64,000 nt of DNA from an uncultured Gammaproteobacteria bacterium. GTDB lineage: Bacteria; Pseudomonadota; Gammaproteobacteria; Pseudomonadales; Halieaceae. Both the position numbers and the translations under genes were made by a program. The stretch spans positions 17,699-81,698 of the forward strand of contig CAVXKH010000006.1 in the NCBI GenBank assembly GCA_963762235.1, given 5' to 3'. Each line of letters opens with the position of its first letter. Position 1 is the stretch's first letter. Of this stretch, positions 12,342 to 51,815 are shown one piece after another. The notes below the pieces were generated by a model. The model was not told the DNA's origin. It did no database searches and worked only from the letters and a program-made list of their open reading frames with translations.

Positions 12342-12362
12342 GCCAAGCGCATCCGTATTATT

Positions 12363-12385
12363 AGGGGGCCATTGCCCCCTTTTTC
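12363..12385 (+). terminator. Rho-independent terminator after comEA
   Basis: AGGGGGC-catt-GCCCCCT hairpin followed by TTTT. Confidence 0.65.
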
Positions 12386-12404
12386 ACAATAGTGATTCAG
12401 TTTC

Positions 12405-14332: not shown

Positions 14333-14428
14333 ACTTCGGACAGCTTGGGTGCGCTTGAACCGCCATGTTTTGTGCCCGTCATAGCGTTGAGAACAGGAGG
14401 GGACTTGTTGAATCGCCCGGGCAACTTC

Positions 14429-20701: not shown

Positions 20702-21898
20702 TTATCCACGACGCAAATTGCCTGGCTTGTCACTTAAGCCATCGGGAAATTCGACAAGCAATCCAGCATCCGTGCCGACACCGGAGCTATCATAGAAGAT
20801 GTCGGAGTTCTCGCCCACAATCGCTCCGATGAGCTTGGCATCGCCCTTTGGATCCAGGGCATTGTCTACAAGGATATTGTCGTGAACGTAGATTTTCTCG
20901 GGTACCGGATCGTAGGTGGGTTTGCTGATATCCAGGTCGACGAAGTAGTAGGCAACGATTAGAACTCCCAGAGAGATATTACCCTTGATATTGTTGCCAA
21001 ATGCCTCGATATCATCGTTGGCCATAATCATGAGGCCGGTACCCGTTGGTACCTGGCCGACAATATTACCTTTCGGTGCAAAGTTTGGCTCGTTGTTCTC
21101 GACAATCATATTGTTGAATACGCGTGTTGCCTCGCCGCCCTGCACGGGGGGGCCGGGCAAATCAAATACCAGGATGCCACCGGTATTGCCGGTAGTATTG
21201 TTTTCGTATACATCGGCAAATTTGGAATTTTCAATTTCGATACCGGCGACATTCTCGTGAACATAGTTGCGGCGCACGATGATGTTCTGGGATTGGCCAA
21301 CGTAAACGCCGGCATCGCTGGCGCCCCGCACCTCGCTGTCTTCAATGAGCACATTTCGCGTTCCCACCGGGTACAATCCGTAGGACCCATTGTTTTCATC
21401 CGGGCCGTTGGTCCACTCCACGCGTACACGGCGAATGGTAACGCCGTTTGAGTCCTTTATCTTTATCGCATCGCCGGGCGAGTTTTCCACCGCGAGGTCT
21501 TCCACCACAAAGTTGTTACCGGTTGCCAGAATACTCTGGCTGCCCGTGGTCTGGTTGCCGAAGCGCAATACCGTGCCGGCTTCTGCATCCATACCCTGGC
21601 CACGCAATACGATGTTATCGACACTGACGCTCAATTCGCCGGCAAAGTCATAAGTACCAGCCGGTAATTCGATAATGGTCTTGGGCTTGGCGTTAATCAG
21701 GGCCTCCTGAGTCCTGGTCTCCAGATTGTCCCCGGTTTCGAGAGTAATGACGGTATAGCCGGGATATTCAGGGTCTGCCAGGTCGTCGGCGATGCTTAAA
21801 TTGTTGTTGCTGCCACCGGAGCAGGCCCACAGAAGGGAGAGGCCAAACACGAGTGTCAGGAGCTTTAGCCAGGTATTATTAGAGTAGGTGTTGGGCAT
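20702..21898 (-). CDS. Parallel beta-helix repeat lipoprotein
   Basis: ATG 21898 with a GGAGA SD. Lipobox LSLLWAC|SGG. Repeated right-handed beta-helix turns (NIVLRGQG, VVEDLAVENSPGDAIKI, VTIRRVRV, VLIEDSEVRGASDAGVYVG, IIVRRNYVHENVAGIEIENS...). Confidence 0.7.
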   Translation of the reverse strand: MPNTYSNNTWLKLLTLVFGLSLLWACSGGSNNNLSIADDLADPEYPGYTVITLETGDNLETRTQEALINAKPKTIIELPAGTYDFAGELSVSVDNIVLRGQGMDAEAGTVLRFGNQTTGSQSILATGNNFVVEDLAVENSPGDAIKIKDSNGVTIRRVRVEWTNGPDENNGSYGLYPVGTRNVLIEDSEVRGASDAGVYVGQSQNIIVRRNYVHENVAGIEIENSKFADVYENNTTGNTGGILVFDLPGPPVQGGEATRVFNNMIVENNEPNFAPKGNIVGQVPTGTGLMIMANDDIEAFGNNIKGNISLGVLIVAYYFVDLDISKPTYDPVPEKIYVHDNILVDNALDPKGDAKLIGAIVGENSDIFYDSSGVGTDAGLLVEFPDGLSDKPGNLRRG

Positions 21899-22067
21899 GA
21901 TTTCTCCGGACAAGGACGATCATATAAGTACAAAAAGCGGAGTATAGCAATTTCATTGGCGCGGGCCAGCATATTTCCCTTGGAGCGCCGGCTCAGCTTA
22001 TCCATGGTTTGGACCTGCGACCCCTGTAGGGGTTCTGCCATAATTACGGTTCAGAGCTCCACAGTTA

Positions 22068-26887: not shown

Positions 26888-29238
26888 TTATGCTTCAGAG
26901 GACGATGTCAATTCGGCCATCAGCGCCATTCGTTGCAGTTGGGTCATGAAATGCCAGGGTACCACCAGCAGCTCTTGCAATTCTGCGGCAGGCAGCGGTT
27001 TACTGAACAGATAACCGCGCATGATAGTTAACGCCATTGGCGGCCAGAAATCGGTACTGTCCTGCTGTTTCCACACCCTCTGCCACGATATGTAGATTCA
27101 GGCTTTTGGCCATAGCGATGATCGCTTTCAGCAGCCTGGCGGCATCTTTGCGCGTGTCGCAGTCAAGCACAAAGCTGCGATCGATTTTAATTTCATCCAG
27201 GGGGTGGCGACCCAGGTAGCTGATGGGTGCATGATTCGTCCCGAAATTCTCCAGAGACAGGTAGACGCCAGTTTCCTTGAGTTCCTGCAGGAATTTGAGG
27301 ATGTCGCTATCGTTATCCATCAGTATTACCTCTGACAAGCCCAGTTCCAGCATCGACGGCGACAGGTTGGCAGCGAGTAATACCTCTCTTAGGCGGGTTA
27401 CGAACGCGGGTTTGAATTGCTGGGGTGAAATATTTATGGCTATTCTGGGCAGTTCCAGGCCTTGATCTCTAAACGCTTTCATTTGGCGACAGACTTCGAC
27501 CAATACCCAGTCGCCGAGCTCCCATATCAGCCCTATTTTTTCTGCCAGAGGAATGAATCGGGCAGGCGATACTCGACCGAATGTGGGGTTTTCCCACCGC
27601 AGTAGTGCTTCAGCGCAAATAATAGAGCCGTTGGTGGTGTCAACCTGGGGTTGGTAGTGCAAAGTGAGTTCATTTCGATCAATGGCCCTGCGTAGTTCCG
27701 ACTCGATTTTGAGGTCATCCTGGTCTGCGGCCTGCATATCCTCTCTATAGAAAAGAAAATTACTGTCGCCGGTCGATTTGGCTTCATGCATTGCTGTGCT
27801 GGCCGATCTGAGCAGTCCCTCCGCATCCATACCATTGCGAGGTGCAATTGCTATACCAATACTCGAATTCACCACTAACTCATGGCCATTAATGGTCACG
27901 GGCTCAACGAGCCTGTCAATTATGCGCTGGGCAACCAGTCCGGCAGCGTCGATGCTATCAAGCTGGCCGAGAACCACGGCGAATTCATCGCCTCCAAACC
28001 GGGCGACATTCAATTCCTCATTTGCATTCCGGTAATGCGCCAGTATGTCACTGCTACGCAGGCAACTTACCAGACGTTTACCCACTTCCTGTAGGAGCGA
28101 GTCGCCGGCACTGCGCCCCAGCGACTCGTTGATACGACTAAAATTGTCCAGATTGAGGAACAGCACTGCCAGCGGCTTTGCGTTACGAGCGCACACGCGC
28201 AGCAGTAGCTCGAGTTGTTCTATAAACAGCTGACGATTGGGTAGTGATGTCAGTAGGTCGTAGTTGGCCAGGCGATGCAGTGCTTCCCTGGTTGCGCTGA
28301 TCTCTTCGGTCGCTTTGCTTAGCTGCTGTTCTCGAATGGACAGCTGGGCTGCTCTTTCATCTGCCCTGAGTGTAAGCAGTTTGTGATCCAGTCCAGCTTC
28401 GTACTTTTTGTTGGCCGAACCGTCTATCATGGCATTGAATACACCTGGCAATAGCCTCAAACTCGTCTTCTTTCCTGAGCCGTAGCTTCCCTGGATTTTC
28501 TCCGGACAAGATTTCGTTGGCCAGTTGCTTTAGTTGTGTGAGCGAAGCTGTTGCGTGTCTGGTGATCAGATAGACTGGGATAGCGCTTAGTACGAGAAGT
28601 ATCAGGCTGCAAAAAAACCACCGGCTGGCTATGGGGCGCACATCCTGCAACAAAATGCCGCGGTCAATTGCCAGGTTTATGTAGCCTATGACCAGGAGGC
28701 TGCTATTTTTTGCGTCGGGTTCAATCAATGCTGGAACGAAATCCGATAACTCCAGGTCTTTGGCATTGGGATTGACCGGGGAAAAAACCGGCGTCGTCAG
28801 GAGTATTGTGGGATTGCTCGCTTTGAGCGATGACCAAAAGCCGGTGCCGGTCTTGTTGTGGGCACCGTCGAATGCGGTCAAACCGGTTTCTGTGACTGCA
28901 AACTCGGCCCTTGTGACCTCCAGTGACGGGATGTTCCGAGGGATTACACTGCTGAGGTCTGTCCTCGCTATTACGTCGCCAAGGCTGTTGTAGGCAACCG
29001 CGACCGAGACCGCACCGGATTCCAGAAAGTTACCCAGAAATTGGTGCAGGCGGGATTCATCATGACGATAGAAGTAAAGCTGTAAATCCGGACGGTTCGG
29101 CACTCGTGCCAGAGCCGTATCAACCACTTTGTCCAGAGCGACCTGATACTCTCGCTGGGCTATATATCCTGTAGCAATACAGCTGAGAAGGAGGCCCAGG
29201 AAAATGAAGACAGCTGTAACCTTTGTGGCGATAGTCAT
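26888..29238 (-). CDS. Membrane sensor with GGDEF (diguanylate cyclase) and EAL (phosphodiesterase) domains, with two +1 frame breaks (~28440 and ~27022)
   Basis: N-terminus is TM - ~170-aa periplasmic domain - TM - linker (ORF 28357-29238). GGDEF region: RFGGDEFAVVLG. EAL region: CAEALLRWENP...DEIKIDRSF (ORF 27000-28460). The C-terminal MRGYLFSKPLPAAEL reads in ORF 26888-27076. Confidence 0.85.
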
Positions 29239-29521
29239 CCGAATAGTTCCTCATCCATTGAGGGGCAGATGTTACCCCCACCGACACCGGGGCCGCACGC
29301 CTCATCCGCCGCCATGGCAATCTACATCACCGATTTCTGCACGAATTCCAGAGTGTGACTATAAGGTATCCGACTAATTTAGTCATCACTTGAGTAATAG
29401 CACGGGACTGGCTAATCAGAGTTATTGCTTTGCTGTGTCGCTATGAAATTTGCTCTCACTATGCACAGCCCCTAAACTGGTGGTCTTGAGTAAAAGGGTA
29501 TTTGGGAAGCGGGTGTCCAGG

Positions 29522-32232
29522 ATGAAGATTCACCAACTCACAGTCCCCGATGCACTGGCAAGCTTGAAGAGTGGCATCGAGGGGCTGAGCGAGGCGGAGG
29601 CGGCGCGGCGACTTGTGGAGTACGGCACCAATGAAGTCGAGGAGGTCGCGAAACAGTCGTTGCTGCTGACTTTTGCGCGGGAGTTTGTGCATTTCTTTGC
29701 GATAATATTGTGGATCGCGGCGGGCTGGCGTTTTTTGCCGAGTGGCGTGAGCCTGGACAACGTATGGCGACGCTCGGGATCGCGATAGTCGGCGTTAATC
29801 TGATCAATGGTGTGTTTTCTTTCTGGCAGACCTATCGTGCGGAACGCGCGCTGGCAGCGCTCAGGAAGCTGCTGCCGAATGCGACGAAGGTACTGCGCTC
29901 AGGCACGGTGCGGCAGGTGCCGGCAGCCCAGCTTGTGCCGGGCGATGTGATTCTGCTCGAAGCAGGAGACATACTGCCGGCAGATTGTCGGCTGGTGGAG
30001 TCTTTCAGTGTGCGGGTAAATAATGCGACCGTCACCGGAGAGTCCTTGCCGATCTCGCGTGACGCGGATCCGTGTGACGCATCCGACCCCATGCATAGCC
30101 GCAACACTCTCCTCGCCGGCACTTCGCTCGTTTCCGGGGAGGGCAAGGCACTCGTCTTCGCAACCGGTTCGCACTCCGCGTTTGGCAGGATTGCGCAGCT
30201 CACGCAGGCGACTGACGACACCATTTCGCCTCTCCAGATGGAGATTATTCGCGTAAGCCGCATCGTCGCCGGGCTCGCACTCACGCTCGGTGTGATCTTT
30301 TTTTTGATCGGTCAAGCGATCGGGCTGTCGTTTTGGGCGAACTTCATTTTTGCCATCGGCATCATCGTCGCACACGTGCCGGAGGGGCTGCTGCCCGACG
30401 GTGACTCTCGCGCTGAGCATGGGTTCGCAACGCATGGCAAAACGCAACGCGCTGATCCGCCATCTGCCCGCCGTCGAAGCGCTCGGCTGCACCACAGTCA
30501 TTTGCACCGACAAGACCGGCACGCTCACGCAGAACTGCATGTCGGCGAAGAAGCTCTTCATTGCCGGTAAAATGGTTGAAACGATTCCGGAGCAACTCGC
30601 GCCGCTTATCGAACCGCACCGCCGCTTTTTTGAGGTGGCGGCGTGTTGCCACGATTTGAAAGACGCCCGGGGCGGCTCTGGCCAGGATTGGCTCGGCGAT
30701 CCGATGGAGGTGGCGATCGTCGAGCTTGCTGCCAAGGCGCTGCACCGGCTGCCGAACAGCACGCGCGAGAACGAGATACCGTTTGACACGCTACGCAAGC
30801 GGCTCTCGACGGTGCATAGCACGCCGGAGGGCCAGCTGCTCTATTGCAAGGGTGCGCCCGAGGTGGTGCTCCCACTTTGTACGCGCGCGATGATGGATGG
30901 CGGCAGCGTGCCTCTCTCGGACGAGTTGGTCGCCACATTTCGCAGCGCGGCGGAGGGCATGGCTGAGAAAGGGCTGCGCGTTCTCGCCTTCGCTTGGCGC
31001 GAGCTGCCGGAGAGTTTTGAACTGGCGAATGCGGAAGCGGAGATGACCCTCGCCGGACTCATCGGTCTCGAGGATCCTCCCCGTCCGGAAGTCGCCGACG
31101 CACTTCAGAAATGCCGGGAGGCTGGCATCAAGGTAATTATGGTCACCGGCGATCATCCGCACACAGCGACGGCGATCGCCCGGGAAATCGGATTGGTGCG
31201 CTCTGCCGCGCCTGTCGTGATCACCGGCGAGCAACTCGGCCGTATTTCCGACATCCAACTTCAACTCGCACTCGATGCGCCGGAGATTGTATTTGCCCGA
31301 GTGCTCGCGGAGCAAAAGATGCGCATTGTCGTCGCGCTAAAAAATAAGCGCGAGATCGTGGCCGTGACCGGCGATGGCGTGAACGACGCCCCGGCGTTGC
31401 GCAAAGCGGATATTGGCATCGCCATGGGCCGAAGCGGCACCGACGTGGCGCGCGAGGCCGCCGATATGGTGCTGCTCGACGACAATTTTGCGCAGCATCG
31501 TCGCCGCGATCGAGGAAGGTCGCGCCGTCTTTGCGAACATCCGCAAGTTTCCTTACTTACATCCTCACCTCGAATATTGCCGGAGCTCATTCCGTATCTT
31601 GCGTTTGTGGTCTTGCGCATTCCGTTGCCGCTCACAATCATTCAAATCCTTGCCGTCGATCTCGGCACCGACATGCTGCCCGCGCTTGGCCTTGGCGCGG
31701 AAAAGCCGGCTCCGGACATCATGAAGGCTCCGCCGCGCGCGCGCACCGATCGGCTGCTGAACTGGCCGCTCCTCGCCCGCGCCTATCTCTTCCTCGGGCT
31801 GATGCAGGCTACGGCTGCAATGAGCGCGTATTGGTTCGTCGCTGCGCTCCGGCGGCTGGCACTTCGGCGAGATCCTGGCCGCACACGATCCGCTCTATCT
31901 GCAAGCCACGACCGCTTGCCTCAGCGCCATTGTCGTCATGCAGATCGTGAATGTCTTTCTCTGCCGCAGCGACCGCCGGTCGGTCTTCGCGACAGGATTT
32001 TTCGGTAACAATCTTATTTTCGCTGGCATTATTACGGAGTTAGTACTGATCCTCTTGATAGTGTATACGCCATGGGGCAATGCCATTTTTGGAACAGCGC
32101 CCGATTCCAGTGACTATCTGGCTGTTTATTCTACCCTTCGCACTCGCCATGCTGGTGCTTGAAGAATTGCGAAAATGGTTTGTGCGCGCCCGGTCCAATG
32201 GCGTGGCAAAGGCGCTCTCCGCAAACCTGTAG
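29522..32232 (+). pseudogene. P-type (type II, Ca2+/cation-like) ATPase broken by 7 single-base indels
   Basis: Reassembled across three frames: [115 protein letters not shown]. Breaks are at ~29725 (-1) and at ~30393, ~31488, ~31548, ~31578, ~31838 and ~32103 (all +1). The restored stop is TAG 32230-32232. Confidence 0.85.
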
Positions 32233-32579: not shown

Positions 32580-35500
32580 ATGACAAGTTCTGACGAAGAA
32601 TGGAACCCCTTTCCCTCGCCTAGCAAAGGATATTTATTTCTGCCATTGAGTGCGGGGAGCGAGCTCCAGACGGTGGATCCTAAGCAGGCGGCACTGGGCT
32701 GGCTAATGGCTTTCTGGCTGGCAGCAACCTCGGTGTGGGTTGCTGCTGTGCATGACGCGCCATTTTTCCTGGCTGGCGCGCTGCTACTGAATCTGGCAGC
32801 CTTTGCGCTGCTACACTGGATGCTGCTGCGTACGCTGCCATCGCTGGCAGATGCTTTTCACCTGTCGTTTATATTCCTGTTTTTAAACCTGCGAGTCGAT
32901 GCGACGCTGCCGATCTGGAGTGCTCCGCTCGATCTGCAGGGCGTATTCACGTTCAGTCGTGTTGGGGCCACGTTACTGTTGCTTCTCTTCTTTGGTGTGC
33001 ACATCGGCTCCTTGGCGGTACGCGGGCGTGGACTCCATACACGCGAAGTAGTCGCACTGGTATTGGCCCCCTGCCTGTTCAATTGGCTCCTGCTGCTGGT
33101 GTCACCGGTATTGCCGGCGCAGTCACTACTGTTGCGCGTATTGGTGGTACTGATATTTAACATGACAGTCGTGCAGCTACTGGCATCCCTTACAAGGCAG
33201 GCGTTCGCCCTGCATTTGTCCATGCTGCTCATGTTGGCGGGTGTATCGGCACTGGTGGCATTGAGCCCTGCGCTGGCTAATATTCCCTGGCGATTAAGCG
33301 CAGCACTGTCTACGCCGTTGCTGCATGTTGCAGCTGTAATTGTGACATCGGTATTATCACAGGCGGCGCTATGGGCGCAAACCTATCTGGTCACTGGCTT
33401 CTTGATGGATGCACTGGAGGGACGCCCGCCCACTCTGGAGCGGGCGAAGGGCCACTGGCAGCAGGGTGCTTATAAGGGCGCTATTTATGGCGGCGTGTTT
33501 ATGTCGCTTATACATACCCTGGCCGGCGCTTATCACCATCTCGCCGGGTTGATAGTGGCCTATCCTTACGTCGGTGGCGCCCTGTCAGGTGCAGTGCTGT
33601 TTCCACTGGTCAAAACCATTGTAGAAAGTTTTGACGGCAGCGCACCATTCGTGACACGACTGTTGGGCAGTTTGCGCGATCCGGTCAATTATTTCCGGGG
33701 AGTGGTAGTGGGAGTCGGTGTCGTACTGGCGCTGCGATTGGGCTTGCCGGGACAGGACTCTTGGCAGAGGTCCGCGTTTGGCTTTGCACTGGGTGCTCTG
33801 GTTTATGCGGGAGTGTACCTGATACGCGACTGGTGGCGCATTGGATGGCGACGGAGGCAGTATCTGCAGAGCTGGAAAGTTTACCTCGTGCAGTTGCTGT
33901 TGGGAGGTGTCACCGGCGCCGCCCTTACCTGGTACGGAGAGTCCAGTCAGTTGCAGGTGATTCTGCAGAAATTCGCGCGCTACTCGACGCTTGCTGTGGA
34001 GACGCCGGAACCCCACATCATTTTTCCGCTGTTCAGTAAGTGGGGTATGCTCAATCTTGGCCTGGAGACCAGCGGTGGGCGCCTGCTTTTCAATGAGTCA
34101 CTATCCGGCGTGATTGGCTGGTCGCTGGCCGCACCCCTGTTCAGTCTCAACATGGTGTTCCTGACAGCGCTGCTCAAACGCAGTACGCGCCCGATAAGCG
34201 AGTTCGCCACCACCGACGGATTAAAGAAAGTCATCGTCCAGGCGCTATTTGTTGAGCGATGGGGCTTGTGGATGGCACCGGTTATTTATTCATTCCTGCG
34301 CATGGCTCCCGACCCGCACTGGTACAACCAGGATGGGGCTATACGCACTGTGGTAGCCACGGGAATGTCACTGGCGCTGGATGACGGCGTGTTTCGAGCC
34401 TGGAGCATCAATTTCTTTGTCAGTCTGCTGGCATTCGATTGGCTGCGTATCCTGATCTGGTTTGACCATATGGGACTGCGTGTTGCTACGCTGGTTAATT
34501 TATCTTTCATCGGCGGCGACATGCTCGATGAAAAAGTCGCACGCGCTGTCGGTTATCCTGCGACCGCTCGCTACATTCCGGAGGGGCTGCGTCGTTTTGG
34601 TACTTGGATGCCACTGCTTTTACCCTTTTACATTCCGCGAGGGCAGGATTGGGTTATCGCCTGGAACACGGCGGAACAGATTTCGCAACAGGCGCAGGCG
34701 CAATCGGCCAGTACGCTGATATGCGCAGGTTTTGCAATGGTCGGCCTACTGCTGGCCGTGTGGCGGTTGCGTAGGGGCAGCGCGACCATCGGCGGTGCCA
34801 ATGGCTGGACTACCGAGGTCTTCCGCCTGGGAAACGACCGCTATGTTTTGGCACTGGACAAGCAGGGACGCGGTTTCAGCGAGGCGCGGCGCGATGACGG
34901 CAAGGGAGGGTTCGTAGATCTGACGCAACGTCCGGTCGCGCCGCATTCCCCGATAGGCAAGACTTTCTACCTGTTGGACAGCGGCCCGGGCGACCCACCG
35001 CAGGTCTGGTCGCTCCATGCCTCACCAAGACCAGCACCGAATGCGCTCTATGCAGCACAGATGTCACCTGAGGGCCGGTTGAGCTACTCCTGCCACTATG
35101 CGGATTTGCACGCTGAGGCGTCGGTCAGCGTGGACCACAGCGATCCACTGGAGCGCTGGGATATTACCCTGTCTAATAGTGGCGACGAGGAGCGGCTGGT
35201 GCAGCTAGTCAGCTTCCGCGACCTGGTGCTTAACGGCGCAGGCATGGCAACACGTCAGCCGAGCTATAACGATCTGCATATCAGTTCCGGGTTTGTGCCG
35301 GCGTTGCAGGCGCTGTTTGCCATAAATGGACTGCTTGGCGTTTCCGATTCGGTATCAGCGGGCGAGGTGTATTTTCATGCGCTTGCGACACTGCCCGCAG
35401 GTGCTCGATTGCTCGGCTTCCAGGACAGCCGCGCCGCTATCGTTGGCGCGGGCTCAAGGCAGCACCCGTCCGGCCTGTTCCGGAATCAGCCGTTGCTGCA

Positions 35501-38060
35501 GGAGGAGGGTGAAGTGCACCGCTTTGATCCTTGCGCCAGTCTGGGTGTTGAAGTGCGACTGGCGCCCGGTGCCAGAATTTCTGTGACCTTTGTGGAGGGC
35601 TGGGCAGCCAGCCATGCAGCGGCCATGCAGCTGTTGCATCGCCACCTGGAGACACCGTTGCTGACATTGCAACAACTGCAGCAGTCGCTGGGGCAGTTAC
35701 GACGCTCGCGGCCTGAATTGCCAGATCCGGATGACCACCGCATGCCCTGGCATTTCAGTGCCGAAGAGCCGTGTGTGCAGATGAACACCAACACCCCCCG
35801 TCCCTGGTTCCATGCGCTGGCGAATGCGCGGGGTTACGGCGCGTTCGCCAGCAACCAGGGCGCCGTTTACTCTTTCTGCGGTAACTCCCAGCAGAACGCC
35901 ATTACCCCATTCAGCCCGGCTCTTGACTCCGCCACCCAGCCCGGGCAGGCGTGGTATTTCTGGGATATGGATAGCGACGAGCCTTTGCTGCGCTTGCCAT
36001 TGACTCTGGGTGATAGCGTTGTCCCCGACGGCGATGGGGAGCTCGAGTCTGAATTTCGTCCAGGCAGCGTGCGATATAGCGCCAGGCGCGCCGCTTTCGC
36101 GTTGGAAATGGATGTATTCACTTTGCCTGACCAGCCTGCTGAGGGCCGCTTGCTTACCCTGCGTAACGAAGGTAAACAGACGCTGCGGCTGCGGGTGAGC
36201 GCGTGTCTGCTACTGGTGCTGGCGGAGCTTCCCGAGGACAGTCGCGGCAGTCTCGAGGTGCATTGGGATGCTGCACAGAACGCGTTTTTCGCTGAAAACC
36301 CGTCCCAACAGTTCTGTCGTGGTCCGGCCTTTATTGCTACTACCTTCCAGCCGGAAGCAGTGGAAACCTTGTATAGCCACTTCATTGGCGAGGGCGGCAG
36401 CATTGAGATACCCGATATGGCTCGCAGCGGTATGCCTGATGCTGCTGCTCCAGATACGGGCTATCGGGTGGCGGCATTCACTCAGGTGGTGATGATTCCG
36501 CCCGGGCAATCCGTGCAACTGGGATTGGTTCTGGGGCAGGCGCCATCAATGCAGGACGCCACAACGATCATTCGTCAGTTGCGCAGTCCTGCTGCGCTGC
36601 ACCGGGCCTTGCTGGATAGTGCTGCATGGTGGCAGCAATTTCTGTCGGATCTGCGGGTGAAAACCGCCGACGCCGACTTTGATCGTCTGGTGAATGACTG
36701 GCTTCCGTATCAATTGGTAACAGCGCGACTGTGGGGTCGCGGCGGCCCGTTCCAGCGCGGTGGCGCTTACGGTTACCGCGACCACCTGCAGGATGTGATG
36801 CCGCTGGCTGCGACCCATCCTGATATCTGTCGCCAGCAAATCCTGCTGCATGGCGCGCAACAGTTCCTGGAGGGAGATGTGCTGCAGTGGTGGCACCCGA
36901 CCTGGAATGGCGAGACTGGAATTGGCGCGCGCAACCAGACATCCGACATCATGCTGTGGTTGCCCTACCTGACATTGCACTACTGCAAGGTGAGCGGTGA
37001 CGACACTATCTGGAACGAAATTCTGCATTTCCTTGAAGGCAGGCCAATTCCCGCGGGAATGGAGGGTATTGTTGCTGTCCCGCTGCGATCTCGCGAAAAG
37101 GCTTCCTTGTATGCGCATTGTCGTCTGGCTATTGACCGCGTGCTCTCACACTTTGGGAAACATGGACTGCCGCTTATCGGCTCGGGAGACTGGAATGACG
37201 CACTGGATGCGATGGGCCGCAAGGGCAGGGGCGAGAGCGTGTGGTTGGGCTTTTTCCTGTATGGGGTGCTGCGGGATTTTGTACCGGTGGTTACAGCAAG
37301 GGAAGGTCCTGAGGCCGGGACTGTGCTGCTTGATCGAGCGCAGCAACTCAAAACAGCACTGGACCAACAATGGCGTGAACAGCGTTACGTGCGCGCCATT
37401 ACCGATAGCGGTGAGGAACTGGTATTTGATGATGCGTTGATGTCATCCTGGCCAATTCTGAGTGGAGTCGCGGATGCCGTCCACGGAGAGGAAGCCCTCA
37501 GGCATGGCCTGAGCGCACTGGAGCGTGACGCCATGATCCTGTTGTTAACTCCGGCGTTTGACAGGTTTTCCAGGCCCTATCCCGGTCGTATCGCGCAGTA
37601 CCCACCCGGTGTACGGGAGAACGGAGCCCAGTATTCCCATGGCAGCTCCTGGCTGGTGGACGCCGCCCTGCAGCTGGCTGGAATACTGCAAGAACAGGGC
37701 GATAGCAGCGCCGCAAAAGAATGGCGCGACCGTGCCGGAGTGATCTGGCACAAGATTTCGCCCCTCACTCACACAGCGCCACAGCGATGGCTCAACTATG
37801 GGTTAGAGCCACACCAGCAAGCGGCAGATGTATATTCCGGCCACGGTTATGAAGGTCGTGGCGGCTGGAGCTGGTACACCGGTTCAGCGGCCCGCATGCT
37901 GACGGCTGCGCGGGGTTTGCTGGGGCTGGAATTTCGCGACGGTCAGTTGCACATCGCTGAATGGGCAAAAAATGGCGATGTATGGCCGCATCTGCAGACA
38001 GTGGCATGGCGTGGCGAGTTGATCAAAATCACTGCGCCGGCAAAAACTCAAAGCGAGTGA
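32580..38060 (+). CDS. 1826-aa inner-membrane protein: ~740-aa polytopic domain of unknown family fused to a GH94-type glycan phosphorylase (Cgs/NdvB C-terminal-like or beta-1,2-oligoglucan-phosphorylase-like)
   Basis: Intact ORF. Residues ~35-735 are almost all hydrophobic helices (about 16-18 candidates). The C-terminal ~1080 aa carry GGAYGYRDHLQDVMPL, GSGDWNDALD and GAQYSHGSSWLVDA in GH94 order. Confidence 0.7.
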   Translation: MTSSDEEWNPFPSPSKGYLFLPLSAGSELQTVDPKQAALGWLMAFWLAATSVWVAAVHDAPFFLAGALLLNLAAFALLHWMLLRTLPSLADAFHLSFIFLFLNLRVDATLPIWSAPLDLQGVFTFSRVGATLLLLLFFGVHIGSLAVRGRGLHTREVVALVLAPCLFNWLLLLVSPVLPAQSLLLRVLVVLIFNMTVVQLLASLTRQAFALHLSMLLMLAGVSALVALSPALANIPWRLSAALSTPLLHVAAVIVTSVLSQAALWAQTYLVTGFLMDALEGRPPTLERAKGHWQQGAYKGAIYGGVFMSLIHTLAGAYHHLAGLIVAYPYVGGALSGAVLFPLVKTIVESFDGSAPFVTRLLGSLRDPVNYFRGVVVGVGVVLALRLGLPGQDSWQRSAFGFALGALVYAGVYLIRDWWRIGWRRRQYLQSWKVYLVQLLLGGVTGAALTWYGESSQLQVILQKFARYSTLAVETPEPHIIFPLFSKWGMLNLGLETSGGRLLFNESLSGVIGWSLAAPLFSLNMVFLTALLKRSTRPISEFATTDGLKKVIVQALFVERWGLWMAPVIYSFLRMAPDPHWYNQDGAIRTVVATGMSLALDDGVFRAWSINFFVSLLAFDWLRILIWFDHMGLRVATLVNLSFIGGDMLDEKVARAVGYPATARYIPEGLRRFGTWMPLLLPFYIPRGQDWVIAWNTAEQISQQAQAQSASTLICAGFAMVGLLLAVWRLRRGSATIGGANGWTTEVFRLGNDRYVLALDKQGRGFSEARRDDGKGGFVDLTQRPVAPHSPIGKTFYLLDSGPGDPPQVWSLHASPRPAPNALYAAQMSPEGRLSYSCHYADLHAEASVSVDHSDPLERWDITLSNSGDEERLVQLVSFRDLVLNGAGMATRQPSYNDLHISSGFVPALQALFAINGLLGVSDSVSAGEVYFHALATLPAGARLLGFQDSRAAIVGAGSRQHPSGLFRNQPLLQEEGEVHRFDPCASLGVEVRLAPGARISVTFVEGWAASHAAAMQLLHRHLETPLLTLQQLQQSLGQLRRSRPELPDPDDHRMPWHFSAEEPCVQMNTNTPRPWFHALANARGYGAFASNQGAVYSFCGNSQQNAITPFSPALDSATQPGQAWYFWDMDSDEPLLRLPLTLGDSVVPDGDGELESEFRPGSVRYSARRAAFALEMDVFTLPDQPAEGRLLTLRNEGKQTLRLRVSACLLLVLAELPEDSRGSLEVHWDAAQNAFFAENPSQQFCRGPAFIATTFQPEAVETLYSHFIGEGGSIEIPDMARSGMPDAAAPDTGYRVAAFTQVVMIPPGQSVQLGLVLGQAPSMQDATTIIRQLRSPAALHRALLDSAAWWQQFLSDLRVKTADADFDRLVNDWLPYQLVTARLWGRGGPFQRGGAYGYRDHLQDVMPLAATHPDICRQQILLHGAQQFLEGDVLQWWHPTWNGETGIGARNQTSDIMLWLPYLTLHYCKVSGDDTIWNEILHFLEGRPIPAGMEGIVAVPLRSREKASLYAHCRLAIDRVLSHFGKHGLPLIGSGDWNDALDAMGRKGRGESVWLGFFLYGVLRDFVPVVTAREGPEAGTVLLDRAQQLKTALDQQWREQRYVRAITDSGEELVFDDALMSSWPILSGVADAVHGEEALRHGLSALERDAMILLLTPAFDRFSRPYPGRIAQYPPGVRENGAQYSHGSSWLVDAALQLAGILQEQGDSSAAKEWRDRAGVIWHKISPLTHTAPQRWLNYGLEPHQQAADVYSGHGYEGRGGWSWYTGSAARMLTAARGLLGLEFRDGQLHIAEWAKNGDVWPHLQTVAWRGELIKITAPAKTQSE

Positions 38061-40085
38061 TGGTGAGATCCACTGGCAGCGGGACACGTTCGTCCCCGAA
38101 ACGAATGACCAGTTCCTTGACCCGATTCAGTCCCGGCGTTTCAGGCATTGGAATGCGGATATCCTTTTCAGTTTCTGCGACGCCAAATCGGGTAAAAATC
38201 TGGTTTTGAAATACGCCCTCGCCGTCAGCCAGAGTCATCACGGCATCAAGGGGTTTGGCTGCCCTGTAGTGGATCACCAGCGCACCGTTCGATAAATCAA
38301 CGCCCCCTTCCAGTGGCAATTTTACGGTAATCGCGCCGTTGCGCACCGCGTTGGCGCTGATTCGTATGCCATGTTCCCCGCGCAACACATCCAGTGGATC
38401 GCTGGTTGGGCTCCATGGAATCCACTGTACGCTGTCGTCCAGGAAATCAAATGCCGCGACCTTGTCGCCGCGACCGCCGGATGGCGAACTGATTTCCTTC
38501 CATGCAAGGTAGCGCTGCATATTTTGCTCGGCGGAGCCGATGCCACCTAGAATCAGCGCCAGTGTGTGCGCCGTGGTCTGAAACTCTATCGCCTTGTCCT
38601 GGGTTGTGTTGTAGCCCTCCCATGGGCCGTGATCGGTGAACAGTCCCTCAATCTGTTTTTGGTTTTCCCCAAGAAACGTTTCAATACTTTCTGGCGCTAT
38701 CGAATAGGCTGTCCCCAGCATATAGAGTGACGGTGCATCGGTGATGCGTGGCTTATTGACCACGGCGACCTCCGGAATTCCGATCTCACCGGTGTATTGA
38801 ACGCCGTTGCCGCTGTACGCCTCGCTCAGGAAGCCGGGCAGTTTGTGCCGGGTTGAATAATCGAGTTCGATATCGACCGAGTTCTCCAGATTCTCACGCC
38901 AGCCCGGCGCGGCCAGTTCCTCGCATAAAAAGTGAAAGACCCAGCGACTCAAAGGCCGAGCCATTCCACGTCGCCAGTGTATAAACATCGCGACCGTCTG
39001 CCATGCGGTACGGCTTGATCTTGAAACCACTGTTTCTGATGGCATCCGTCGGCAGGCCGAAACGCTGCACGACAAACATCAGCGGGACCGCGGAACTCGT
39101 TCACAAAATAGTCCATGTGTCCGACGATCCATTTGCCTTTACTGTCTTCCCATCCGGTGAAGCGGTCATGCGTGGCATTCCAGCCAAAGAAAAACAAGCC
39201 TGATTCTTTATCGTAGAGTTTGCGGTAGCCCTCTTCTTGCCTGGCAATAAACTGCTCCAGCTTGTCGCGCAGGCTTACAGTCGCTGGATCATCCGCAATT
39301 GAAGGGTGTAGTAGTGCACCGATTGCCTTGGCTGCGGATGCTGTCAGATTGGCGTTGTCGCCGAAAATAATCTGCACAACTCGCGTGTCCAGTACAGCCA
39401 TGATTTTCGTGCGGGTGTTGCTCTCGGCAAACGGCGCCAGTTCTGCGGTGAAAAAACCGTCGCCATACTCGCCCTTGCGCGGAATCTTGGCAAAAGAACC
39501 ATCCTGTAGCGGAATGATCCACCCGCGGGCAGTGAGCGCAGTCCAAATTTGATTTGCCTGCTGTTCGCCGAATACATCGACGAACTTTTTCTTCTGTACT
39601 TCCTCGCTCAGTGGCCCGACGCGTCCAGTGGCATCAAAGCCGAGAAAATTTCCGAGGAGACCGCTGGCGCCCAATTTCGGATCGTTTTGGTCAGCGAGCA
39701 GACTCGACAGCATCAGCTCGAGCTGGCCCAGCGCCTGAGCACGTGAAATATAGGGATTCTGCGCATACCCTGCAGCGATATTGGCCAGAAGTTCAAGGCG
39801 CTCGCCGATGGCGGTGAGTTGCGTGAAGGAGCGCAGATAGAGTCCACGCTGCGGCTCCTGATTCCAGCCTTCGACCGGGTAACCGGAAACCGGATCGACC
39901 AGAGCCTGCTCCGGTTTTAGATAGCCCATCGCATTGATCAGCAAGCGTTGCATATTTTCGTGGTGGGGATTAACCAGCGGAAAATTGAATCCGGCAGAAG
40001 ACACATGCACCTCGGGGGGCAGGGCTTGAACACTTCCTGCGACAAATAGAATCGTGAGTGCCAGGGCTGAAAATGTTTTTCTCAT
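38029..40085 (-). CDS. Secreted six-hairpin (alpha/alpha)6 glucanase-like protein (PF10091/DUF3131-like, from memory) with a C-terminal beta-sandwich domain; two +1 frame breaks (~39075 and ~38920)
   Basis: Signal peptide MRKTFSALALTILFVAGSVQA from ATG 40085. Three frame pieces join as ...GHMDYFVNEFRGP|LMFVVQRFGLPTD...TWNGSAFESLGLSLFM|EELAAPGWRENLE...GFLSEAYSGNG.... The 3' end overlaps the convergent GH94 gene by 32 bp. Confidence 0.5.
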
Positions 40086-40250
40086 CGCATATCGCTCAAC
40101 TATGGCCATGGCAGAGCACTGATGAGTTAACCGAACATTGACTGAATAGTCTGAATGTAGCTTACTTTTCGTGCTCCCAGTTTGCCATAGAATGCGACCG
40201 ATGCGTCAATTTGGTGCTTATTCGGCGCCATCGAGTGCCGCCAGAACAAA

Positions 40251-40419: not shown

Positions 40420-40523
40420 CCGCTAATTGGGGATTCTATCAGTGTGTTGATTACGTGCTGCATTTCAGTGCTATGTAGATGATAATAAAAGGCTATTTTC
40501 GCCTCGTCCAGGTAGGGAAATTC

Positions 40524-42544
40524 GTGTCCAAGCGTTTCAAGGTTGAATCCCACTTCCAGCCCGCCGGCGACCAGCCGGAGGCCATCCGCCAGCTGGTGGA
40601 AGGAGCGCGGGCCGGTCTTGCTGCGCAGACCTTATTGGGGGTTACGGGATCAGGGAAAACGTTCACCATGGCACATGTGGTGGAGCAACTGCAGCGACCG
40701 ACCATCGTGATGGCGCACAACAAGACGCTGGCAGCGCAACTGTACGGTGAGTTCAAGGAGTTTTTCCCCAATAACGCTATCGAGTATTTCGTCTCCTACT
40801 ACGACTATTACCAGCCTGAGGCCTATGTTCCGTCCTCGGATACGTTTATCGAGAAGGACGCCTCTGTGAATGAGCACATCGAGCAGATGCGGCTCTCGGC
40901 CACCAAGGCCTTACTGGAGCGTAGCGATTGTCTCGTAGTGGCCACGGTCTCCGCCATTTACGGTCTGGGCGATCCCAAGTCGTATTTCAAAATGCTGATT
41001 CACCTGTCTCGTGGCGAGATTGTTGACCAGCGGGACATTCTGCGCCAGCTGGCGGAGCTGCAGTATACGCGCAACGACGTGGATTTTCGGCGCGGCACCT
41101 ACCGGGTACGCGGCGATGTGATCGATGTATTTCCCGCGGATTCAGAGCGCGATGCGGTGCGGATTGAATTGTATGATGAGGAAGTAGAGCAAATAAGCTG
41201 GTTCGATCCACTGACTGGCGCCGTCCAGAGCAAGGTGCCCCGGGTGACCATCTTCCCCAAGAGCCACTATGTGACGCCCCGGGAGGTCATGCTCGATGCA
41301 GTGGTACATATCGAGAAGGAACTGGGCGAACGACTCAAGCAGCTCCGGGAGAACGACAAGCTGGTGGAGGCGCAGCGTCTAGAGCAGCGTACCCGCTACG
41401 ATATGGAGATGATCCGTGAACTGGGTTACTGCACCGGTATTGAAAACTACTCGCGTTATCTGTCCGGTCGGGCGCCGGGAGAGCCGCCCCCTACGTTATT
41501 CGAATACCTGCCGGAGAATGCACTGGTGATTGTGGATGAGTCCCACGCCAGTATTCCCCAGATTGGCGCCATGTATAAGGGCGACCGCTCGCGCAAGGAG
41601 ACGCTGGTTGAATACGGCTTTCGCCTGCCTTCTGCCCTGGATAACCGCCCCCTGCGCTTTGAGGAGTGGGAGCAGCTGGTGCCACAGCTGGTTTTTGTCT
41701 CGGCCACGCCCGGACCCTATGAAGCGCAAAAGGCCGGACGCACGGTGGAGCAGGTGGTGCGTCCCACCGGTCTGGTGGATCCTGTGGTGGAGGTGCGACC
41801 GGCTACGAGCTCAGGTGGACGACCTGTTGGGCGAGATACGCATCGTGGTTGAACGCGGCGAGCGCGTGCTCGTCACCACCCTGACCAAACGCATGTCAGA
41901 AGATCTTACAGAATATCTGGGCGAGCACGGCGTGCGCGTGCGCTACCTGCACTCGGATATAGAGACTGTGGAACGGGTGGAGATTATTCGCGATCTGCGC
42001 CTGGGCGTGTTCGACGTCCTGGTGGGTATCAACCTGTTGCGCGAGGGACTGGATATGCCCGAGGTGTCGCTGGTTGCGATCCTGGATGCTGACAAGGAGG
42101 GATTTCTGCGCTCCGAACGTTCCCTGATCCAGACCATGGGCCGCGCGGCCCGTCACCTGCATGGCAGGGCGATCCTCTATGCGGACAGGGTGACCGGCTC
42201 CATGGAGCGCGCCATGGCGGAAACCGACCGCCGTCGGGACAGGCAGATTGCCCATAATACACTCCACAACATTACACCCGTCGGCGTCGAAAAATCGGTG
42301 CAGGACATCATGGAAGGTGCCCGGCGCATGCCGACCAGAGGCAAGGACAAGGCCAGAAAGGTGGCGGAATCGCAGGGCCGCATACAGTGCCGAAGTTGCC
42401 AACCTGGCACCCGCTGCGCTGTCGCGCAAACTCAAGCAACTGGAAGCGCAGATGCATGAGCATGCAAAAAACCTCGAATTTGAACAAGCGGCAGCCCTGC
42501 GAGATCAACTGGCGGAAATCAGGCAACTGGCCTTTCTCAGCTAG
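40524..42544 (+). CDS. uvrB: Excinuclease ABC subunit B, with two +1 frame breaks (~41811 and ~42375)
   Basis: [23 protein letters not shown], Walker [13 protein letters not shown], ...VEVRPAT|[28 protein letters not shown], and the C-terminal UVR motif [19 protein letters not shown] in a third frame. GTG 40524 is the preferred start. Confidence 0.93.
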
Positions 42545-51772: not shown

Positions 51773-51815
51773 CTTATGTTGTCCCTTGAGGGTAATTCGT
51801 TCACTGGATTTGGCC

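Follow-up and report, generated by a model that had tools for sequence, protein, structure and literature searches.

A widespread bacterial protein family that joins a large all-helical membrane domain to a Cgs-type GH94 phosphorylase module

Why should a glycan phosphorylase be joined to a giant membrane domain? The window analysed here is a stretch of 64,000 nt, in whose positions all coordinates are given, and the gene under study (32580..38060, plus strand) encodes such a protein. For it a preliminary description had offered two alternatives, namely the uptake of periplasmic glucan fragments coupled to phosphorolysis, or glucan synthesis and export driven by glucose-1-phosphate (Glc-1-P). 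Periplasmic beta-1,2-glucans, both osmoregulated and cyclic, matter for osmoadaptation, envelope signalling, symbiosis and virulence. To our knowledge, no route for their removal or recycling has been described, and the only synthases that we know of use UDP-glucose. In the literature we found no characterised precedent for either retrieval or synthesis by a fusion of this kind.

The gene is a single ATG-initiated reading frame of 1826 codons, whose parts are as follows.

32580..38060, plus strand: whole ORF, 1826 aa, in which a Cgs-type GH94 phosphorylase module follows a polytopic membrane domain; colinear with intact orthologues.
32580..32678, plus strand: N-terminal tail (residues 1-33), unconserved (conservation 0.16, poor orthologue match), pLDDT below 50, probably cytoplasmic.
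32679..33278, plus strand: variable N-terminal bundle (residues 34-233) of seven strongly hydrophobic, poorly conserved membrane helices.
33315..34694, plus strand: conserved membrane core (residues 246-705) of about 10 membrane helices and three conserved loops, delimited by alignments, AlphaFold2 pLDDT (mostly above 90) and per-helix conservation.
34707..34775, plus strand: last membrane helix (residues 710-732), followed by RLRR; on a positive-inside reading it would deliver the GH94 module to the cytoplasm.
34965..35612, plus strand: GP1, the first beta-supersandwich (residues ~796-1011), aligned to Cgs residues 1584-1791; second GH94_b-supersand stretch; subdomain scheme of PMC10901819.
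35796..36536, plus strand: GP2, the GH94 beta-supersandwich (residues 1073-1319), Pfam PF06165 (GH94_b-supersand), E 9e-52, and alignment to Cgs.
36627..37910, plus strand: GP3, the GH94 (alpha/alpha)6 catalytic domain (residues 1350-1777), Pfam PF17167 (Glyco_hydro_94), E 3e-67; Cgs, E 6e-90.
37188..37190, plus strand: codon of D1537, first Asp of GDWND and predicted general-acid catalyst.

As initially described, this frame is intact amid genes that carry indels: the upstream P-type ATPase gene (29710-30570 / 30350-32008), the convergent downstream gene (38029-39075 / 38949-40109) and uvrB (40479-41852 / 41530-42459) are all frameshift-split. The fragmentation of these neighbours, and of one orthologue (L001), raises the suspicion of a pseudogene or of two genes run together through an indel in the consensus of error-prone long reads. 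Comparative data refute such an artefact, to which we assign practically no probability. Of the 85 clustered loci, from several phyla and assemblers, 84 carry the fusion as one ORF (median 1826 aa), and the window protein is colinear end to end with intact orthologues (66-79% identity), with no out-of-frame stretch, no low-similarity stretch past residue 40 and its catalytic residues under conservation. In one MAG the fusion is called as two genes; the frameshift responsible (residues 606/613) lies within the membrane domain, away from the domain boundary.

Relatives are encoded by at least 571 GTDB species genomes, and the fusion is obligate within the family and conserved across phyla. The preliminary description had left conservation to a survey of homologues. 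The protein is no singleton: its family is large, and the members are already listed in public databases, misleadingly labelled as "cyclic beta-1,2-glucan synthetase" or "glycosyl transferase family 36". The term synthetase is unfounded, since the protein has no GT84/GT2 polymerase and no GH189 cyclase domain. Pfam gave no glycosyltransferase family at E ≤ 1, and NCBIfam no match of any kind; the cyclase region of Cgs (residues 979-1535) has no match in the fusion protein in single-sequence and profile comparisons with the PDB, nor in Pfam. In the same PDB comparisons, matches to Cgs are confined to its GH94 region (residues 1584-1791 and ~2034-2765). Recognising this corrects a systematic annotation error across hundreds of genomes. 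Most hosts are non-saccharolytic, many being sulfate reducers or methanotrophs, i.e., not sugar users, and at least two (Benzoatithermus flavus and Sinimarinibacterium sp. CAU 1509) are in culture, which makes experiments feasible.

Some family variants begin with a signal peptide, 1-4 beta-sandwich modules and exactly one extra membrane helix. The module is all-beta (AlphaFold2 pLDDT 94.9) with a beta-jelly-roll fold, whose best structural matches are CBM11, CBM22 and CBM27 (best Foldseek match 6r31/1v0a, E 4e-7, TM 0.64); searches for a sequence family gave no match. Given that they follow signal-peptide-like segments, these modules are probably extracytoplasmic and are candidate carbohydrate binders. 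The one extra helix offsets the periplasmic modules, so the GH94 module would stay cytoplasmic in the variants. The window protein itself has no CBM11-like module.

Residues 34-732 are entirely helical by hydropathy and AlphaFold2 secondary structure, with about 25 helices and a lone short beta-hairpin (478-495), in a model of good confidence (pLDDT 87). The earlier claim of some 16-18 transmembrane segments that leave no room for a GT-A domain is borne out, as there are about 18 membrane helices and no beta/alpha domain able to hold a GT-A fold. A count of 18 with both termini inside fits the positive-inside rule at every loop, and we infer an N-in/C-in topology. The three conserved loops of the core, namely the hairpin, PDPxWYNQDG (577-586) and IPEGLRRFGTWMPLLLPFYIPRG (666-688), would accordingly face the periplasm. 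Invariant core residues include R360, R373, R397, Y452, Q457, N524, R560, W561 and W564, as well as W581, Y582, Q584, D585, D629, H630, R634 and N640; the most conserved residues of the membrane domain are aromatic or polar and lie in the putative periplasmic loops and the last membrane helices.

A match of this region to a known glycosyltransferase or transporter family had been considered at the outset. Pfam, NCBIfam and the PDB (single-sequence phmmer and profile) returned none, and Foldseek of the model against the PDB, a method that is weak on all-helical bundles, reached a best E of 0.09 and TM ≤0.15. With hhalign we found no internal repeat, and the profile of the domain matched E. coli OpgH with a probability of 0.7%. 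Likewise, no profile or fold similarity to known transporter or GT-C superfamilies (MFS, ABC, MOP/Wzx, RND, GT-C and others) was found in Pfam, NCBIfam, the PDB or by Foldseek against the PDB. Conserved, some 700 residues long and lacking any relative that we could detect among solved structures, the membrane domain is an attractive target for structural biology.

Might the membrane domain nevertheless be a new all-helical glycosyltransferase, a polymerase that makes the protein a functional analogue of cyclic glucan synthase, with GH94 for length control? All-helical membrane glycosyltransferases do exist (GT-C), invariant Asp, His and Arg residues lie in membrane helices, and the databases name the family a cyclic beta-1,2-glucan synthetase. 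That name, however, derives from the GH94 half only, and no similarity to a glycosyltransferase family emerged from Pfam, PDB sequence and profile searches or Foldseek, though the PDB holds many GT-C structures. Moreover, GT-C enzymes take lipid-linked donors and work on the periplasmic side of the membrane, beyond the reach of a cytoplasmic GH94 module. We regard this explanation as highly improbable.

The second half of the protein (residues ~796-1793) is a complete Cgs-type GH94 module with intact catalytic residues, in which the Pfam search found GH94_b-supersand as two stretches, the best at 1073-1319. The three GH94 hallmarks reported for it are present in the expected order, and the RD, GDWND and ENG..YxH motifs align with Cgs, chitobiose phosphorylase and cellobiose phosphorylase. 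Besides D1537, R1400 and D1401 (in YGYRDHLQD) and H1687 (in QYSH) are predicted to complete the phosphate and sugar site; the phosphate and subsite -1 roles of the RDxxQD Arg-Asp pair and the ENGxxYxH His are known from GH94 structures. Of 92 full-length family members, 90 retain all four residues, so that a loss of the catalytic Asp or of the phosphate site, named earlier as fatal to the interpretation, is not seen. The catalytic Asp of RrCGS is D2528 (PMC11842490).

Among solved GH94 structures the GH94 part of Cgs is by far the closest (single sequence, E 1e-114 versus 2e-33 for the best of the others); with the family profile, E values are 2e-227 for Cgs, 2e-79 for cellobiose phosphorylase and 4e-4 for LpSOGP. 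In Cgs the order is GP1-RFL-GP2-GP3, the Rossmann-fold-like (RFL) insert occupying residues 1847-2012 (PMC10901819). The fusion protein has GP1, GP2 and GP3, but only ~50 residues separate its GP1 and GP2 matches, which leaves no room for the roughly 165-residue RFL; the insert is probably absent. Closeness to Cgs, taken together with the partner genes, points to beta-1,2 linkage specificity.

Two neighbouring genes bear on function.

27000..29238, minus strand: GGDEF-EAL gene (c-di-GMP turnover; Pfam), frameshift-split, upstream and divergent.
38032..40103, minus strand: secreted SGL-clan homologue, convergent, ~690 aa, overlapping the 3' end of the fusion ORF by ~30 bp (tblastn against an intact orthologue).

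The convergent gene, which 6 Halieaceae-clade genomes share, encodes a signal peptide, MRKTFSALALTILFVAGSVQA, and is broken in the assembly by two frameshifts, near 39060-39085 and 38921-38937. Its matches in the PDB are 8xuj (EeSGL1; E 1.7e-7) and 8wy1 (E 0.036), and judged by sequence it is a remote homologue of EeSGL1, an endo-beta-1,2-glucanase of SGL-clan Group 1. NE(S/F)R aligns with the general acid E221 of EeSGL1 and DN.NL with its base candidate D149 (numbering offset by one), and the window copy keeps both motifs (VNEFRG and GDNANL). The product also weakly resembles the GH189 cyclase and could thus be a transglycosylase.

In lineages other than that of the window (Desulfobacterota, Myxococcota, Gamma- and Alphaproteobacteria), opgG (GH186) adjoins the fusion gene in 22 of the 85 loci, immediately upstream in 15, immediately downstream in 5 and divergently in L042; the product of the adjacent opgG is 42% identical to E. 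coli OpgG. OpgG/OpgD and SGL Group 1 are beta-1,2-specific endo-glucanases (PMC10514313, PMC12102758). The partner position is therefore filled by two unrelated periplasmic beta-1,2-glucanase families, and three lines tie the fusion to periplasmic beta-1,2-glucan: the SGL-clan neighbour, opgG in those 22 loci and the periplasmic CBM11-like modules of relatives. The idea of a GH94 module served by a transmembrane conduit, put forward from the gene itself, is strengthened by these partners and modules. At one locus (L030) the fusion gene and a second opgG lie 3.6 kb away from a canonical opgG-opgH operon, so that here the fusion exists side by side with the known synthase and does not replace it.

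A GGDEF-family gene is found upstream of the fusion in the clade of the window and its sister clade (L001, L002, L005-L013), and diguanylate cyclase (GGDEF) genes adjoin it in 18 loci; this conserved position suggests a regulatory link. A Wzx-like gene adjoins one variant, and an exopolysaccharide-type cluster lies upstream in the window. Genes for a beta-glucosidase (including GH3), phosphoglucomutase, a sugar regulator or an outer-membrane receptor were not found nearby.

The reading that we prefer, at a probability of roughly 0.45, is that the membrane domain takes fragments of periplasmic beta-1,2-glucan back into the cell, where they undergo phosphorolysis to Glc-1-P. The membrane domain, with its 18 helices in a so far undescribed fold, would form the conduit, its last helix setting GP1-GP2-GP3 at the cytoplasmic face. 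A periplasmic endo-beta-1,2-glucanase (the convergent SGL-clan homologue here, OpgG in other lineages) would cut periplasmic or environmental beta-1,2-glucan to oligosaccharides, which, captured in some relatives by the CBM11-like modules, would enter the membrane domain and reach the GH94 active site non-reducing end first. There inorganic phosphate would shorten them to alpha-glucose-1-phosphate, coupling uptake directly to energy-conserving phosphorolysis. Such a system may salvage or turn over the osmoregulated or cyclic glucans of the periplasm, or it may serve foraging; in hosts that do not use sugars, such as sulfate reducers and methanotrophs, only the turnover of self-made glucan would make sense.

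GH94 enzymes act phosphorolytically in cells, and two reports describe beta-1,2-glucan utilisation loci that pair an importer with a GH94 phosphorylase (PMC3960220, PMC4757417). Of the two alternatives first offered, the partner enzymes and the coexistence with OpgH at one locus favour uptake over synthesis, although direction is not fixed by sequence. Several points weigh against uptake. None of the downstream or receptor genes listed above is at hand, many hosts do not use sugars, the membrane domain, at 700 residues, greatly exceeds known oligosaccharide permeases in size, the match of the neighbour to EeSGL1 is remote with a weak GH189 likeness, and diguanylate cyclase genes, a Wzx-like gene and an exopolysaccharide-type cluster are more typical of polysaccharide production.

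These last points bear on a phosphorylase-type synthase and exporter, in which GH94 would run in reverse and extend a beta-1,2 chain at its non-reducing end with glucose from Glc-1-P, the reducing end being threaded through the membrane domain to the periplasm for trimming, branching or cyclisation by OpgG or the SGL/cyclase-like neighbour. Such a protein would be an analogue of OpgH or BcsA that has no glycosyltransferase and makes periplasmic glucans independently of UDP-glucose. OpgG is required for OPG synthesis in E. coli (PMC10514313, PMC11842490), where its usual operon partner is the synthase OpgH; opgG holds beside the fusion the position that it holds in the opgGH operon, and its adjacency can thus argue equally for a synthase. 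The nearest GH94 relative belongs to a biosynthetic enzyme, Cgs, and the GGDEF genes in 18 loci, the Wzx-like gene beside one variant and the mostly non-saccharolytic hosts point the same way. The translocon of cellulose synthase, too, comes with carbohydrate-binding jelly-rolls in the periplasm (BcsB). In vitro, a beta-1,2-oligoglucan phosphorylase readily builds beta-1,2-glucan from Glc-1-P, according to one study (PMC3960220). On the other hand, a primer is required, the fusion coexists with a complete opgGH operon at L030, and the partner enzyme families are characterised as endo-hydrolases. Phosphate is far more abundant in cells than Glc-1-P, and net synthesis would thus depend on coupling to an energy source, which we know of for no phosphorylase. 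We consider synthesis, the main rival of uptake, unlikely.

Coexistence with opgGH also suits a membrane-tethered length controller or sensor, whose membrane domain would conduct no glucan but anchor and regulate GH94, for example by sensing osmolarity, membrane tension or c-di-GMP, while GH94 trims cytoplasmic chain ends beside a separate synthase such as OpgH, as within Cgs. The signalling genes nearby agree with this proposal, as does the finding that within Cgs the GH94 part contributes to length control and serves as a scaffold (PMC10901819). A mere anchor, however, needs no ~460 conserved residues with invariant polar and aromatic positions in putative periplasmic loops, and both the CBM-like modules of variants and the periplasmic glucanases that partner the gene indicate that the protein itself makes contact with periplasmic glycan. 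In addition, the nascent chain of an OpgH-type synthase has its non-reducing end held in the active site of the synthase and thus inaccessible. On balance we think a controller or sensor decidedly unlikely.

A further, tentative proposal, to which we give somewhat less than an even chance, might be named vectorial phosphorolysis. Here the novel-fold domain would thread beta-1,2-glucan across the inner membrane and GH94 would process it residue by residue at the cytoplasmic exit, so that movement of the chain is coupled to phosphorolysis or, in reverse, to Glc-1-P-driven polymerisation, with no nucleotide sugar, ABC transporter or PTS and possibly under c-di-GMP control. Gram-negative bacteria could then withdraw or make periplasmic glucans on demand, through an unrecognised class of carbohydrate translocator. 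Whichever direction applies, the protein probably carries beta-1,2-glucan across the inner membrane as it shortens or extends it, and the architecture is new: a widespread family in which a Cgs-type phosphorylase and a large membrane domain are partnered with periplasmic beta-1,2-glucanases. Turnover, if true, would supply a retrieval step for which we know of no described system; synthesis, if true, would constitute a glucan synthase/exporter with no nucleotide-sugar step.

Among known systems, Cgs likewise sits in the inner membrane and devotes its C-terminal half to a GH94 module of GP1, GP2 and GP3, with the GDWND Asp conserved and beta-1,2-glucan as the substrate (for the fusion, a putative one). 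Cgs, however, has a GT84/GT2 polymerase and a GH189 cyclase, both missing from the fusion protein, an RFL insert that the fusion protein probably lacks, and 6 membrane helices versus the ~18 of an unrelated domain. The OpgG-OpgH pair shares with our loci the adjacency of opgG (22 loci here, opgH in E. coli), and OpgH, as the fusion protein may be, is a polytopic inner-membrane protein that handles beta-1,2-glucan; yet OpgH is a GT2 enzyme using UDP-glucose, whereas the fusion has no GT2 match in Pfam and its catalytic module is a phosphorylase. From BcsA-BcsB the fusion differs in having neither GT2 nor PilZ and no sequence or fold similarity, in its phosphorolytic chemistry and, on our proposal, in a direction that may be inward. 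The convergent neighbour matches EeSGL1 (8XUJ) significantly over the catalytic core, with general-acid Glu and base-candidate Asp aligned, but is ~240 residues longer, with an extra C-terminal region and low identity; the SGL clan comprises GH144, GH162, GH189 and the new Groups 1-4, of which Group 1 is common in marine bacteria. Finally, the soluble 1,2-beta-oligoglucan phosphorylases (Listeria Lin1839 and LpSOGP, 5H3Z) are GH94 enzymes that carry an additional supersandwich at the N-terminus, as the fusion protein does, and lack the RFL insert, as it probably does too (GP1-3 comparison in PMC10901819), although LpSOGP is only remotely related to our module in sequence (profile E 4e-4). They are soluble and rely on separate genes for an ABC importer and a GH3 beta-glucosidase, whereas the fusion brings its own membrane part, with no GH3 gene nearby; the logic of their loci (PMC3960220, PMC4757417) is nonetheless the one proposed here, import of beta-1,2-oligosaccharides followed by cytoplasmic phosphorolysis.

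The fusion gene lies among genes that are broken in the assembly, and the features that frame it are as follows (window coordinates, strand):

27000-29238 (-), GGDEF-EAL gene, divergent from the fusion gene in the Halieaceae clade
29450-32230 (+), P-type cation ATPase, between the GGDEF-EAL gene and the fusion ORF, split by frameshift
32580-38060 (+), fusion ORF, one ATG-initiated reading frame of 1826 codons
38032-40103 (-), convergent neighbour, overlapping the 3' end of the fusion ORF, with two frameshifts

As the preliminary description had it, the ORF runs uninterrupted through a region of indel-bearing genes: the P-type ATPase, the downstream convergent gene, uvrB and the GGDEF-EAL gene are all split by frameshifts. 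Single frameshifts interrupt many genes of the window and are visible as overlapping ORF pairs in differing frames (e.g., at 28357-28460, 30350-30570, 38921-39085 and 41530-41852), a pattern typical of uncorrected long-read consensus errors. In L001, the locus of the nearest relative elsewhere, the fusion gene is itself in three pieces. The split genes of the window and of L001 are of the kind that indel-prone long-read assembly yields and, without read support, gene calls in either should not be read as pseudogenes. The same description had raised the concern that the ORF could be two genes joined by error. Alignment shows it to be colinear with intact orthologues at 66-79% identity, and after residue 40 the best-match identity is at least 50% in every 30-residue window. 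A Halioglobus MAG in which two genes are called carries a single frameshift at residues 606/613 (tblastn), which is within the membrane domain. Given this colinearity and the retention of the gene in 84 of the 85 clustered loci (median length 1826 aa), an artefactual fusion is, on sequence comparison, excluded.

Pfam annotation of the fusion protein returned only the GH94 beta-supersandwich (two stretches, the best at residues 1073-1319) and the GH94 catalytic domain (residues 1350-1777). No glycosyltransferase family was found by Pfam even at E<=1 and NCBIfam gave no match, in agreement with the initial reading that the protein has no glycosyltransferase domain. Among solved structures, the C-terminal 1086 residues matched the GH94 region of A. 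tumefaciens Cgs, the synthase of cyclic beta-1,2-glucan (8RF0/8RF9), with an E-value of 1e-114, against 2e-33 for the next best solved GH94, and a search of the PDB with the family profile gave 2e-227 for Cgs, 2e-79 for cellobiose phosphorylase and 4e-4 for LpSOGP. The Cgs stretches matched, 1584-1791 and about 2034-2765, are subdomains GP1 and GP2-GP3 in the cryo-EM description (PMC10901819). In the fusion protein the two matches lie no more than about 50 residues apart, and the Rossmann-fold-like insert that Cgs has at 1847-2012 is therefore missing. The GH94 hallmarks read initially from the sequence hold on alignment. More specifically, Cgs, chitobiose phosphorylase and cellobiose phosphorylase each have aligning equivalents of YGYRDHLQD, GDWND and ENGAQYSH, and in RrCGS the leading Asp of GDWND is the catalytic residue (D2528; PMC11842490). 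Because these motifs align and R1400, D1401, D1537 and H1687 are retained in 90 of the 92 full-length family members, the predicted phosphorylase has intact catalytic residues and is under selection, and this half of the protein is judged a clear GH94 member of the Cgs type. IMG lists the protein as "cyclic beta-1,2-glucan synthetase" and NCBI as "glycosyl transferase family 36", and both names stem from this half; the glycosyltransferase and cyclase domains that define a Cgs are missing.

The membrane domain is organised as follows (residues of the fusion protein):

34-233, helices, very hydrophobic and poorly conserved
246-705, conserved core of the alignment
710-732, a helix followed by RLRR

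Hydropathy and an AlphaFold2 model built with 50 homologues (mean pLDDT 87, pTM 0.86) indicate that residues 34-732 are all-helical apart from one short beta-hairpin (478-495). We infer 18 membrane helices over this range, at the upper end of the 16-18 first estimated, with the N- and C-termini inside, an arrangement that fits the positive-inside rule at every loop examined. Residues R360, R373, R397, Y452, Q457, N524, R560, W561, W564, W581, Y582, Q584, D585, D629, H630, R634 and N640 are invariant in the core, and the most conserved loops (the hairpin with PLFSKWG, PDPxWYNQDG and IPEGLRRFGTWMPLLLPFYIPRG) would lie on the periplasmic face. Searches of the PDB by sequence and by profile gave no match to this domain, Pfam and NCBIfam returned nothing, hhalign of its sub-regions detected no internal duplication, and no kinship was found with the membrane region of E. 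coli OpgH, the known synthase of osmoregulated periplasmic glucans. The structural comparison proposed earlier for the N-terminal domain, Foldseek against the PDB with the confident model, gave noise only (best E 0.09, TM at most 0.15); Foldseek is weak on helical bundles, and the result is to be read as no known fold detectable here. The membrane domain is outside every described family. A cryptic new glycosyltransferase is a very improbable reading.

The apparent rarity of the membrane domain in a word-indexed search (three proteins with a 740-aa query, four with a 13-sequence profile) is an artefact, because hydrophobic words filled the list of 8000 candidates. Exhaustive phmmer search recovered 390 cluster representatives, 145 of them at E<=1e-30 and most 1800-1870 aa long; word-indexed protein search is unreliable for such long hydrophobic queries (3-4 against 390 matches). 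With a 211-aa conserved segment it returned almost nothing but gene fragments and no alternative domain partner. Pfam scans of 11 longer variants placed GH94 C-terminal to the membrane domain in nine and found no other domain; the variants without a GH94 match, the homologous proteins P0045 (1236 aa) and P0031 (1078 aa), are too short for the GH94 part. As the survey of homologues proposed in the preliminary description now shows, the fusion is conserved and the protein is a family member, not a singleton, with a relative in at least 571 genomes when one genome per GTDB species was scanned. Hosts include Halieaceae (nearest to the window, up to 79% identity), Nevskia, Sinimarinibacterium, Immundisolibacter, Geminicoccaceae, Methylocystis, Roseiarcus, Lichenihabitans, Anaeromyxobacter, Verrucomicrobiales, Desulfobacterales, Desulfovibrionaceae and Desulfomicrobium.

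Among the 150 best representatives, at least 18 open with a signal-peptide-like segment, after which come between one and four tandem copies of a module of about 150 residues, and then one added membrane helix. Examples of the module are:

P0040, residues 24-178
P0041, four copies
P0158, three copies
L079 (a homologous locus), 9125-15070

Since searches of Pfam and of PDB sequences with this N-terminal module were empty, its identity comes from structure prediction, which gives a beta-sandwich (pLDDT 94.9) with CBM11 as the best PDB match (E 4e-7, TM 0.64), followed by CBM22, CBM27, CBM28 and CBM29. The motifs GVWTK, EIKG and W..IG...EVV are conserved, and the model suggests an undescribed periplasmic module of CBM11-like fold. 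One extra helix is precisely what would place the modules outside with GH94 still inside, which supports the inferred topology. At locus L088 (8424-27500), a 2499-aa variant carries three CBM-like modules; a Wzx-like Polysacc_synt gene is directly upstream and a giant gene, whose product has at least 6770 residues, directly downstream.

The convergent neighbour is intact in L006, L007, L012 and L013, begins with an N-terminal signal peptide and has no Pfam domain. Its PDB matches are 8XUJ (E 1.7e-7), which is EeSGL1, an SGL-clan Group 1 endo-beta-1,2-glucanase releasing sophoro-oligosaccharides Sop3-7, and 8WY1 (0.036), the GH189 cyclisation domain of a Cgs (PMC12102758). Searching with a profile of four neighbour sequences gave no gain over the single-sequence match. 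The general-acid Glu and base-candidate Asp of EeSGL1 align with the conserved VNEFRG and GDNANL of the neighbour, both of which are found in the window copy. These alignments point to a secreted, remote homologue of EeSGL1; relative to that enzyme it is extended at the C-terminus by about 240 residues, and it may represent a further unclassified SGL-clan branch. Conservation of this gene beside the fusion, which the preliminary description had wished to see checked, holds for each of the six genomes in the clade of the window. In other lineages opgG (PF04349; 42% identity to E. coli OpgG) adjoins the fusion gene. In neighbourhoods of +/-10 kb around each homologue, opgG takes this place in 22 of 85 loci from Desulfobacterota, Myxococcota, Gamma- and Alphaproteobacteria (directly upstream on the same strand in 15, directly downstream in 5, divergent in L042 and upstream in L073); the window itself has neither opgG nor opgH. 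OpgG and OpgD, both of family GH186, cleave beta-1,2-glucan in the periplasm (PMC10514313). The partner position thus seems to be held by two unrelated periplasmic families that cleave beta-1,2-glucan (the neighbour by remote homology), and this is the strongest evidence for a beta-1,2-glucan substrate and for contact with the periplasm. We consider it probable (roughly 0.7) that the protein crosses the membrane, faces glycan on either side of it and has a beta-1,2-glucan phosphorylase as its cytoplasmic end.

As to direction, we tentatively favour retrieval and phosphorolysis, in which products of periplasmic endo-hydrolases (Sop3 and longer) would be retrieved and then phosphorolysed at the cytoplasmic GH94 end. 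The enzymes of both partner families are endo-hydrolases, and what they release is a substrate for phosphorylases; at the ratio of phosphate to Glc-1-P found in cells, phosphorylases work in the phosphorolytic direction; and the scheme mirrors known utilisation loci for beta-1,2-glucan and cellodextrin. A further argument comes from L030 (uncultured Desulfobacterium sp. TRIP AH-1, LT984854.1; 284-15337), where 3.6 kb separate a full opgG-opgH operon from another opgG and the fusion gene, the two pairs being divergent within 15 kb with a sigma-54-dependent response regulator between them. Because the operon coexists with it, the fusion is no substitute for the known synthase, at least in this genome, and the arrangement may reflect synthesis and turnover under common control. 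In hosts not using sugars, retrieval would serve to turn over the periplasmic glucans that the cell itself makes. Genes for a GH3 beta-glucosidase, phosphoglucomutase, sugar regulator, outer-membrane receptor or ABC importer do not recur near the homologues, and none is present in the window.

A synthase coupled to export is a more doubtful reading, to which the genetic role of OpgG in synthesis, the Cgs-like GH94 module and the weak resemblance of the convergent neighbour to a cyclase lend some weight, as do c-di-GMP and polysaccharide-type contexts typical of production. GGDEF-family genes adjoin the fusion gene in 18 loci and in two arrangements: in the Halieaceae clade it is the divergent GGDEF-EAL gene, and in the sister clade (L005, L008-L011) PAS-GAF-GGDEF genes that directly precede the fusion gene on its own strand. 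Searches within and ahead of the fusion ORF gave neither a PilZ domain nor a c-di-GMP riboswitch, and the region of the gene start showed no Rfam element, sigma-70 promoter or terminator. That the protein serves as a tethered length controller or sensor is unlikely, less so than a cryptic glycosyltransferase. Neighbourhood clustering also brought up an ABC-F ATPase, an AMP-binding enzyme, an HDOD kinase and a HerA-like protein among other recurrent neighbours, which were judged lineage synteny and rejected as functional partners.

Elsewhere the window contains genes of housekeeping function and a cluster of exopolysaccharide or O-antigen type, with this entry:

22068-26279 (-), 20702-21913 (-) and 12405-16420 (+), listed with a sulfotransferase-like, GT2 and GT4 fusion of 1403 aa

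The 1403-aa protein adjoins a NosD/beta-helix protein and a WecA-like, CapD-like and epimerase set, and together they form this cluster, possibly for a sulfated glycan. It is conserved upstream in L001 and L002, and additional sulfotransferase genes are at 50438-53531. Across the window's clade the P-type ATPase gene seems either to decay or to vary in its presence; L001 keeps only a 185-aa C-terminal fragment and L002 only small ORFs.

In the literature searched we found no paper describing this fusion architecture, an absence that is no proof of novelty. Compared with known systems, the fusion protein lacks the glycosyltransferase and cyclase domains of a Cgs and is not one; it is likewise neither an OpgH nor a soluble SOGP. 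It belongs with the membrane-bound GH94 glucan machinery, and the chance that its mechanism is transport-coupled and of a categorically new kind is substantial.
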